Sequence record: OR846086.1
DNA length: 1,292 nucleotides
Source: a phage
Reading direction: 5' to 3' (one strand)
Made by a program: the position numbers and the translations under genes. The notes under the pieces are model-generated. The model saw only the letters and a list, made by a program, of their open reading frames with translations, was not told the DNA's origin and made no database searches. Shown here in pieces: positions 1 through 1,292 of the stretch (its first letter is position 1; each line of letters begins with the position of its first letter).

Positions 1-29
1 GCAACTCTGCACGCCTGGAGTACAAACCC

Positions 30-359
30 ATGACCGACGCCATCAAACATGAGCGAGAGGCTCAGGGTAAGCAGATCGCCCCGCATCACTTCAGCAACGA
101 AGCTGACCTGATTAACCGACTGGCGCTGGGAATGACGGCGGCCAAGTTCCGCGTGCATCACGAAATCGGGAAGAAAGAGCCGATCCGCGATTACCTGACG
201 CCGGAACAAATTCACTGCATCACCGAGCTACAGCGTGCCAACACGGTATTCATCAGCATGGGGTGGGACTTCGAACAACGCAAAGAAGTGCTGCGCGGCA
301 TGTTCGAACGTAATCATCGTCAGCCCCTTATCGAAGAACAGCACCGTCTGGCGGCCTAA
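30..359 (+). CDS. Hypothetical His-rich protein, 109 aa as called; may be the C-terminal part of a longer ORF because the frame has no stop between position 3 and the ATG at 30
   Basis: ATG at 30 with GGAG (17..20) 9 nt upstream; TAA stop at 357..359; codon usage strongly G/C-ending (my hand count about 73 of 107 codons, GC3 roughly 68%), with Ala mostly GCC/GCG and Leu mostly CTG. Eight His in 109 aa, including two HH pairs. No homolog recognised from memory. Confidence 0.72.
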   Translation: MTDAIKHEREAQGKQIAPHHFSNEADLINRLALGMTAAKFRVHHEIGKKEPIRDYLTPEQIHCITELQRANTVFISMGWDFEQRKEVLRGMFERNHRQPLIEEQHRLAA

Positions 360-376
360 GCTACGGAAATAGCTTC

Positions 377-401
377 GAGAGCCACTTTCACAACGGCTCT
401 C
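377..401 (+). other. GC-rich stem-loop GAGAGCC-(11 nt)-GGCTCTC, 18 nt downstream of the ORF1 stop; possible transcript 3'-end or stability element, not a canonical intrinsic terminator
   Basis: Perfect 7-bp inverted repeat (377..383 and 395..401) with 5 of 7 G:C pairs; the downstream sequence is CATTACAAAG, so there is no U-tract. Confidence 0.2.
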
Positions 402-492
402 CATTACAAAGCCTATCTACGGGCGGGCTTGATAATGAAACCGTGATTTACATCCCTACAATACGGGTATGTAAAAGATAGTTCAGGCGAGA

Positions 493-512
493 ACAGATTT
501 AACTAAATCTGT
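493..512. promoter_or_regulatory. 20-bp palindrome ACAGATTTA-ac-TAAATCTGT with perfect 9-bp arms; candidate operator for a dimeric DNA-binding protein, or an RNA hairpin (8-bp stem, 4-nt loop)
   Basis: Read directly from the sequence: the reverse complement of 493..501 equals 504..512 exactly. It sits in the non-coding spacer, about 135 bp after the ORF1 stop and about 210 bp before the ORF2 start. Confidence 0.3.
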
Positions 513-719
513 GTACCACCAGTTATGGCAGTACCGCGAAACAGCCCAAGCCAGTAAGTGGGGAAAATAACACTGGCAGCCACTGAAAGATGAACCTCCT
601 GCCTTATGGCAAAAAAGATTCTTTGTGGTGGCGGACTGATGGAAAGACATCGGTTATTGCAGAGGCCATTCAATGAGTGGTCTAGACAATGGCTTATCCC
701 AACAACCGGAGCCAACACA

Positions 720-962
720 ATGGCAGAGATTACAGCATTGACAGAATTACAGCAGATGAACCTCGATATCCTCCGTTTAGTTCAAAGCGATACCGCAGCA
801 GCAGAGAAAGCGATCGCATTCGTTGCTGGAAGTAAGCTGAACTTCGAACTGTTCAAAGACCAACTGGTTTTGGCGCAGGGTGAAGGAACGGCATTAGCTC
901 GCGCAGAAAAGGCTATTCGTGAGGCAAAAGAAGCGTTAGACCTGTTCACCGCCGGAGTATAA
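720..962 (+). CDS. Small hypothetical protein, 80 aa, Ala/Leu/Glu/Lys-rich and probably all alpha-helical; start reassigned from 606 to 720
   Basis: ATG at 720 is preceded by GGAG (708..711) with an 8-nt spacer; TAA stop at 960..962. The 606..719 extension in the ORF track has no Shine-Dalgarno (the sequence upstream is CCTCCT) and is packed with rare codons (AGA, AGG, CGG, TTA, TTG, CTT, TGT, GGA), unlike the body of the ORF. Confidence 0.68.
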   Translation: MAEITALTELQQMNLDILRLVQSDTAAAEKAIAFVAGSKLNFELFKDQLVLAQGEGTALARAEKAIREAKEALDLFTAGV

Positions 963-964
963 TC

Positions 965-1292
965 ATGGCAAATCCAAATTTCACGCCATCATGGCCTCTC
1001 TACAAAGATGCTGACGGTGTATATGTGTCTGCTCTTCCGATTAAAGCTATCAAATACGCTAATGACGGAAGTGCAAACGCAGAATTCGACGGCCCGTATG
1101 CTGACCAGTACATGTCAGCGCAAACAGTAGCCGTATTCAAGCCAGAGGTTGGCGGATATCTGTTCCGGAGCCAGTACGGCGAGCTGCTCTATATGAGCAA
1201 GACAGCATTTGAAGCTAAGTACACTTCCGCAAGCGGTTCAGTAACGAATGCAGAGACGGCGGATAAGTTATCTACTGCTCGCACTATCACAC
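965..1292 (+). CDS. Hypothetical protein, N-terminal 109 codons only (3' partial, continues past the window end); Tyr/Ala/Ser/Thr/Gly-rich, no signal peptide
   Basis: ATG at 965 with GGAG (954..957) 7 nt upstream, lying inside the 3' end of the preceding ORF; only 2 nt separate the upstream TAA from this ATG, indicating translational coupling. Open frame to the window end; codon style matches ORF2 (GC3 roughly 46% by hand count). Nine Tyr in 109 aa. Confidence 0.72.
   Translation, partial: MANPNFTPSWPLYKDADGVYVSALPIKAIKYANDGSANAEFDGPYADQYMSAQTVAVFKPEVGGYLFRSQYGELLYMSKTAFEAKYTSASGSVTNAETADKLSTARTIT

Follow-up and report, generated by a model that had tools for sequence, protein, structure and literature searches.

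A DUF2560 gene and the capsid decoration gene dec in the late operon of a P22-like phage: a tight junction that is probably an interchangeable slot and not a dedicated partnership

The DNA analysed here (hereafter the window, 1,292 nt of phage record OR846086.1) carries three co-oriented coding stretches, all on the plus strand: the 3′ part of a gene for a Rha-family regulator (1..359), a small gene of the DUF2560 family (ORF2, 720..962), and the first 109 of the 134 codons of the decoration gene dec (ORF3, 965..1292). In megablast searches it is 99.9% identical over its full length to Salmonella phage S.Kent 1-2-1, and about 94% of it, in two aligned pieces, is about 97% identical in SPN9CC and several other P22-like Salmonella phages (Lederbergvirus); these matches place the window in the late operon of a P22-like Salmonella phage or prophage belonging to this genus. 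The gene order of SPN9CC runs from a Q-like antiterminator through two tRNAs, holin, endolysin, Rz and a Rha-like regulator to a spacer of approximately 310 nt, and continues with DUF2560, a head decoration protein (134 aa), gp3 (small terminase, TerS), gp2 (large terminase, TerL), portal and scaffold, an order also found in a 99.9%-identical record (locus L031). The original prediction, made without database searches, had offered a phage or mobile-element structural or accessory module as one possibility for ORF2 and ORF3, and the P22-like late operon context bears this out.

The upstream coding stretch comprises the last 118 codons and the stop of a gene that starts outside the window. Its product matches PHROG 2657 ('transcriptional regulator', E 6e-43), the homologous stretch in E. 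coli is annotated as 'Rha family transcriptional regulator', and the complete rha frame in L031 (3811..4497) encodes 228 aa. Between rha and ORF2 lies a conserved non-coding spacer without assigned strand (378..704), which is about 95% identical in 1,133 of 5,426 complete E. coli genomes, where its flanking genes are mosaic and no gene is annotated within its copies; the spacer is itself a mosaic featuring two conserved blocks, at about 401-445 and 527-704. A search of the whole window against Rfam (E ≤ 1) returned no match. The predicted fold of 527-719 is mildly more stable than that of shuffled sequences (z −2.3 on the plus and −1.9 on the minus strand), and the spacer copies, all at least 92% identical, are too alike for a covariation test. 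Promoter and terminator scans stayed at chance level (2 hits vs. 1.1 expected and 2 vs. 1.3 expected, respectively), so that no internal promoter serving ORF2 and dec can be claimed. The right edge of the spacer coincides with a known moron insertion site, occupied in P22 by pid, which is located between orf25 and orf80 (PMC3573128); the window represents the no-insert form of this site. A terminator-like leftward hairpin (TTTTTTGCCATAAGGCAGGAGG) is present at 595..616 on the minus strand, in a scan whose overall count is at chance level, and the equivalent site of phage L is annotated as a leftward terminator (MW013503, 39485-39529). The hairpin sits to the left of the P22 site that carries the leftward-transcribed pid moron and might stop antisense transcription originating in pid-type inserts.

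ORF2 extends from ATG 720 to TAA 960..962 and encodes 80 aa, with a Shine-Dalgarno (SD) motif, GGAG, read directly at 708..711 on the plus strand, 8 nt before the start codon. Pfam DUF2560 (PF10834) matches residues 5-76 over its entire length (model positions 1-72 of 72) with 81.1 bits against a cut-off of 25, and PHROG 571 matches the protein with E 3e-36. Homologues include P22 orf80, ST64T/L orf118, epsilon34 gp69, HK620 hkbM and Sf6 gene 67, and 79 homologue clusters, nearly all of 77-80 aa, span Salmonella, Citrobacter, Cronobacter, Hafnia, Atlantibacter, Klebsiella and Pectobacterium. The frame is open from 606 to 962, and several records, including those of L and SF6, annotate an orf118 or 118-aa DUF2560 protein; a start at ATG 606, giving the 118-aa form annotated in ST64T, L and SF6, is nonetheless very unlikely. 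The additional 38 codons are absent from P22 and epsilon34, which retain the SD and ATG context of position 720, CGGAGCCAACA(C)AATGG, a context also conserved in L and SF6; they further fall within the spacer that has no annotation in E. coli, and no obvious SD precedes ATG 606. We prefer the 80-aa form because of the coverage of the Pfam model, the conserved SD and ATG context and the lengths of nearly all homologues.

P22 orf80, ST64T orf118, HK620 hkbM and Sf6 gene 67 share with ORF2 not only family, 80-aa length and SD-to-ATG context but also the C-terminal EALDLFTxGx tail and the site upstream of the terminase genes. They differ in allele and neighbor: ORF2 of the window belongs to allele A (the L/ST64T type), whereas P22 and HK620 carry allele B, 41% identical to it, and the abutting gene is dec in the window, orf59c in P22 and TerS in HK620-like E. 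coli prophages. An AlphaFold2 model of ORF2 (mean pLDDT 89) predicts a small protein of four helices (9-20, 25-35, 39-51 and 58-77), the last three residues lying outside the final helix, and the composition (A 20%, L 15%, E 10%) agrees with the original prediction. Sequence and profile searches against the PDB gave chance-level matches only, Foldseek comparison of the model with BFVD retrieved uncharacterized proteins only, with no DNA-binding or terminase-like match among the structural hits, and mentions of DUF2560 in the literature were limited to two papers, each touching on it in passing. Our best guess, taken from its position only, is a nonessential accessory protein of the late or packaging region. 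A truncated form was also seen in the HK97-type siphoviruses HK97, HK106, mEpX2 and mEp235, which keep only the first 27-28 codons of allele B at 93% identity; in HK97, HK106 and mEpX2 this remnant lies near the right end of the genome.

ORF3 is Dec, the capsid decoration protein of Salmonella phage L and its relatives, as identified by sequence: phmmer against the PDB returned a single match, the Dec protein of 6E3C (107 of 109 residues identical, E 6e-68), PHROG 3018 ('head decoration protein') matches with E 5e-45, and tblastn over the 109 residues shows 100% identity to epsilon34 gp71 and g341c gp67 and 98% to phage L Dec, while searches of ORF3 against Pfam and NCBIfam gave no match. Decoration had been among the roles listed for the pair by the original prediction, and for ORF3 it proved correct, as did the composition noted there (A 15%, S 9%, T 8%, Y 8%). 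Further equivalents are ST64T Orf-134 and ST104 ORF48. Compared with phage L Dec, the window protein has the same start (MANPNF...) and occupies the same place right before terminase gene 3, the two differing by two substitutions (N85K and A94T) that are both shared by epsilon34; the upstream neighbor of dec, in turn, is DUF2560 in the window and orf129 in L, ST64T and epsilon34. In epsilon34, gp71 gives a strong virion band at about 15 kDa with the N-terminal sequence ANPNF (PMC2629481) and, as the two proteins are identical over the 109 residues, this confirms the ORF3 start codon experimentally.

Each Dec chain of 134 residues consists of an OB-fold (folded residues 12-89), which binds the coat-protein lattice in its mature, expanded state, and a C-terminal segment (about 99-134) that forms a trimeric, three-stranded β-helix spike essential for capsid binding; the protein occupies a subset of the quasi-three-fold sites as 60 trimers (PMC6449081). 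It is found on mature L and epsilon34 virions in about 180 copies, binds expanded capsids and not procapsids, and stabilizes them against Mg chelation (PMC8022706, PMC6449081, PMC2629481); proteomics of phage L virion preparations found 22 proteins. Homology of ORF3 to Dec spans the OB-fold capsid-binding domain, which the window holds in its entirety together with the first ~10 residues of the spike region. The window stops at dec codon 109; the full gene and its downstream neighbors, whose retrieval had been proposed alongside the original prediction, are available in L031, where a complete 134-aa frame ending in ...TLTGAVTGSTSFDGSANVTIATTSGS is followed after 3 nt by TerS; in SPN9CC, too, dec stands immediately upstream of the small terminase gene 3. 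The C-terminal spike is thus very probably present beyond the window end, and by homology the encoded Dec would likewise be a virion protein that binds and stabilizes expanded capsids. Lambda gpD, T4 Soc/Hoc and T5 pb10 belong to the same class, sitting on the outside of the expanded capsid and stabilizing it (PMC7602432), but in sequence Dec is unrelated to gpD, Soc or pb10; the sections of the literature consulted contain no report of a small upstream partner for gpD, Soc/Hoc or pb10.

A tail-fiber identity for ORF3, at first suggested by its ...KLSTARTIT motif, was rejected: the motif belongs with the resemblance of the Dec spike, and that resemblance is limited to the C-terminal β-helix segment, which was modelled on T4 gp34 (PMC6449081). 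Many GenBank records nevertheless label dec as 'tail fibers protein' or 'tail fiber protein' (e.g., MK972685-MK972697 and KU927491-KU927498), a misannotation we trace to the modelling of the spike on the T4 gp34 tail fiber, while RefSeq versions of some of the same genomes read 'head decoration protein'. The GenBank label should be changed to 'head decoration protein Dec'.

At the junction of the two genes, the ORF2 stop at 960..962 is followed after 2 nt by ATG 965, the next ATG, which opens the 109-codon frame that runs off the window end, and the dec SD (GGAG, 954..957, plus strand, 7 nt before ATG 965) is contained in the GGA GTA (Gly-Val) that ends the ORF2 coding sequence. Both features, seen by direct reading and in the list of open frames, are as originally described; the two are real genes, tightly abutted and with the SD in their shared end. 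A single late operon covers the genes homologous to those of the window in P22 and L (PMC8022706), and it is by analogy with these phages that late cotranscription of ORF2 and dec can be expected. Neighbouring junctions in the SPN9CC late operon measure −29, −4, +2, +3, −23, 0 and +13 nt: by this comparison the tight ORF2/ORF3 spacing is real yet not unusual, close junctions being the norm in the operon. We also looked for a sequestered dec ribosome site in the predicted RNA fold of the junction and found no significant structure (−10.2 kcal/mol, z +0.51 vs. shuffled sequences), with the SD only weakly paired. With no stable structure over that site, sequence alone cannot show that dec depends on translation of ORF2, and an unburied site makes independent initiation as plausible as reinitiation. 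The arrangement had been called classic coupling: the tight stop-to-start distance and the SD within the upstream gene agree with that term, whereas the exposed dec site is not what strict dependence would entail. The coupling signal is real but generic.

What had been read from this coupling, namely a physical or functional partnership of the two products, did not hold up against gene order in related genomes. We compared the window with 30 fetched loci from about 10 genera, made up of 24 genome loci (Citrobacter, Symbiopectobacterium, Atlantibacter, Erwinia, Xenorhabdus, Yersinia, Providencia and Escherichia) plus phage records. DUF2560 lies upstream of the terminase genes in the window and in all 28 fetched loci that include downstream DNA (two end too soon), and the interval between them is either empty or filled by orf129, orf59c, dec, Dec-like genes or other small frames, such that in most loci DUF2560 abuts TerS, orf129, orf59c or others. 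In phage L, the type Dec phage, the order is orf118 - orf129 - dec: the 129-codon orf129 separates DUF2560 from dec, begins 3 nt after orf118 and overlaps the dec start with its own stop (TAATG). Epsilon34 has the same three genes (gp69 - gp70 - dec), in SF6 DUF2560 stands directly before dec, P22 reads orf80 - orf59c - gene 3 with no dec, and in E. coli P22-like prophages DUF2560 is followed after 2 nt by a small gene (TerS) preceding TerL. The two DUF2560 alleles, 41-43% identical, are distributed across these arrangements, with allele A found directly before dec (window, SPN9CC) or before orf129 and dec (L), and allele B found directly before dec (SF6), before orf129 and dec (epsilon34) or without dec (P22, HK620).

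In the phage collection DUF2560 occurs in 171 records (143 of them near full length) vs. 65 for Dec. In all Dec-encoding phages seen, a DUF2560 gene stands one or two genes before dec, but DUF2560 is also present where Dec is absent, namely in P22, HK620 and loci of E. coli, Klebsiella, Xenorhabdus and Yersinia; an obligate partner is expected to co-occur in adjacency with its client and to be missing where the client is missing, a pattern that DUF2560 and Dec do not follow. The original prediction had stated what would count against it, namely that the two proteins fall into unrelated, independently functioning families with no co-occurrence in other genomes: the first half applies, the families being unrelated and functionally independent, whereas the second does not, as both are found together in the P22-like lineage. 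The separating gene of L, ST64T and epsilon34 encodes 129 aa (PHROG 1365); its L and epsilon34 versions (2369-2758 of locus L002 and 2221-2610 of locus L003) contain an HExxH motif (HECAH), against NCBIfam it yields a single match, below threshold, to an HExxH-type domain (16 bits vs. 40), and it is also found without dec (L007). Among the loci, four MAG contigs labelled Cellvibrionaceae, Bacillota and Collinsella (L027-L030) carry enterobacterial P22-like prophage DNA whose TerL (in L028-L030 also TerS) is 99-100% identical to proteins of Salmonella phages or E. coli prophages, probably as a result of bin contamination.

In the 80-aa forms, the end of the DUF2560 gene is conserved independently of what follows it. 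All 24 of the 80-aa forms examined terminate in ...LF[TS]xG[AV], encoded by acYGGAGyaTRA or a close variant, and in 23 of these 24 tail-bearing loci a start codon is found 1-4 nt past the stop whichever gene comes next (dec, orf129, orf59c, TerS or others), the single exception being L027, with a gap of 29 nt before the next gene. The GGAG tail is missing from the shorter forms (74-77 aa) found in Xenorhabdus, Yersinia, Providencia, Erwinia and Symbiopectobacterium, and there the next gene follows after 8-58 nt, mostly behind an AGGAGG-type site of its own. At the nucleotide level, alleles A and B are closely similar only at the two ends of the gene (the first ~15 nt and the last ~30 nt), with 13/15 and 15/15 matches per 15 nt there vs. 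1-10/15 in most of the middle. We read the DUF2560 tail as a putative built-in ribosome-binding site and recombination junction.

In light of these results we consider it very probable that dec is one interchangeable occupant of a slot after DUF2560, and that its abutment with ORF2 reflects mosaic recombination and no dedicated partnership. ORF2 would be the resident small gene at the upstream edge of this variable slot, right before the terminase genes, and in the Salmonella, E. coli and Citrobacter lineage its last three codons (..xGx, acYGGAGyaTRA) would supply a ready-made ribosome-binding site, so placed that the start codon of whichever gene occupies the slot would fall 1-4 nt past the ORF2 stop. 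On the antiterminated late transcript, dec may then be translated by ribosomes finishing ORF2, that is by reinitiation, or through fresh binding at the exposed GGAG, and ORF2 and Dec would have no need to interact. Lambdoid moron and mosaic-junction slots such as the P22 pid locus resemble the DUF2560-TerS slot in harboring no or differing inserts between conserved flanks (PMC3573128), but a classic moron comes with a promoter and terminator of its own and often lies in opposite orientation, as pid does, whereas the genes of the DUF2560-TerS slot are co-oriented, show no promoter or terminator of their own and take their SD from the DUF2560 end. It is with the upstream accessory region, comprising rha and the pid-type moron site, that ORF2 itself might alternatively belong, as a nonstructural protein for host interaction or regulation; we regard this as unlikely. 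An assignment of ORF2 to DNA packaging is also doubtful, if somewhat easier to entertain: as an accessory factor of terminase or of early head assembly, it would have dec in its neighborhood only incidentally, in keeping with its fixed place just upstream of TerS/TerL in about 10 genera, with at least 12 loci in which DUF2560 abuts TerS directly or with a short spacer, and with the 28-codon remnant that HK97-type phages keep at the same place before cos and terminase. At least three unrelated TerS types follow DUF2560, however, with no partner covariation visible, the structural searches found nothing resembling a DNA-binding or terminase protein, and the classical account of P22 packaging calls on genes 3 and 2 only. 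Furthermore, a P22 prophage in which orf25-orf80 was replaced by a KmR cassette, removing orf80 in whole or perhaps only in part, still lyses and lysogenizes (PMC11016777).

A role in Dec assembly itself is far less probable than either of these assignments. Were ORF2 a dedicated chaperone or holdase, keeping Dec monomeric and assembly-competent until capsid maturation while coupling sets the stoichiometry, the tight junction with its shared SD and the presence of a DUF2560 gene just upstream in all Dec phages seen would find a ready explanation, as would two in vitro properties of Dec: it trimerizes over days whereas infection takes under an hour, and upon over-expression it adopts a nonoptimal 'closed' trimer (PMC11398494). 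The authors of that study explain the slow trimerization in solution by templating on the capsid, and both Dec over-expressed alone, made with no other phage protein, and acid-made Dec monomers bind purified P22 virions or capsids, the monomers trimerizing there (PMC11398494). DUF2560 is moreover found in over 100 phage records and most prophage loci without Dec (P22, HK620, Klebsiella, Xenorhabdus, Yersinia), the gene abutting dec in L and epsilon34 is orf129 and not DUF2560, and nearly the same Dec is found with two DUF2560 alleles that share only ~41% identity; a role specific to Dec is thus highly improbable for ORF2. No better placed is a broader version in which DUF2560 serves as a general late-stage holdase or adaptor, for Dec monomers in Dec phages and for another late protein elsewhere. 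If true, it would account for Dec trimerizing in days in vitro yet within the infection cycle in vivo, and it agrees with the occurrence of DUF2560 in every Dec phage seen, but it meets the same wide DUF2560 range without Dec, the intervening orf129 of L and the binding of Dec alone in vitro.

Dec and the gene order described here are already known, the latter being visible in many deposited genomes, and Dec is among the best-characterized phage decoration proteins: its structure has been determined by NMR and by cryo-EM, and on P22 particles it is used as a display scaffold. As for the slot reading favored above, it would make the DUF2560 end a conserved, ribosome-binding-site-bearing junction before the terminase genes at which small genes (dec, orf129, orf59c and Dec-like variants) are swapped, and as such a tidy case of mosaic exchange centered on a widespread and still uncharacterized gene of the model phage P22. 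It also illustrates that genes lying close together in a phage late operon should not be taken for partners on that account.

Divergent Dec-like proteins were also seen between DUF2560 and TerS in two loci, one from Yersinia proxima (L022, 4252-4854) and one from the Enterobacteriaceae genome MGYG-HGUT-00110 (L008, 4467-4835). The 122-aa frame of the latter, which may be truncated, matches Dec only at residues 55-104 (58%). In the 200-aa protein from Yersinia the similarity covers the Dec OB-fold (29% over 96 aa), and the protein differs from Dec at its C terminus, which reads ..GKPSTFAP..GTT..TAMAGNK.. before an Ala/Thr-rich tail; together, the two place Dec relatives beyond 'phage L and close relatives'.
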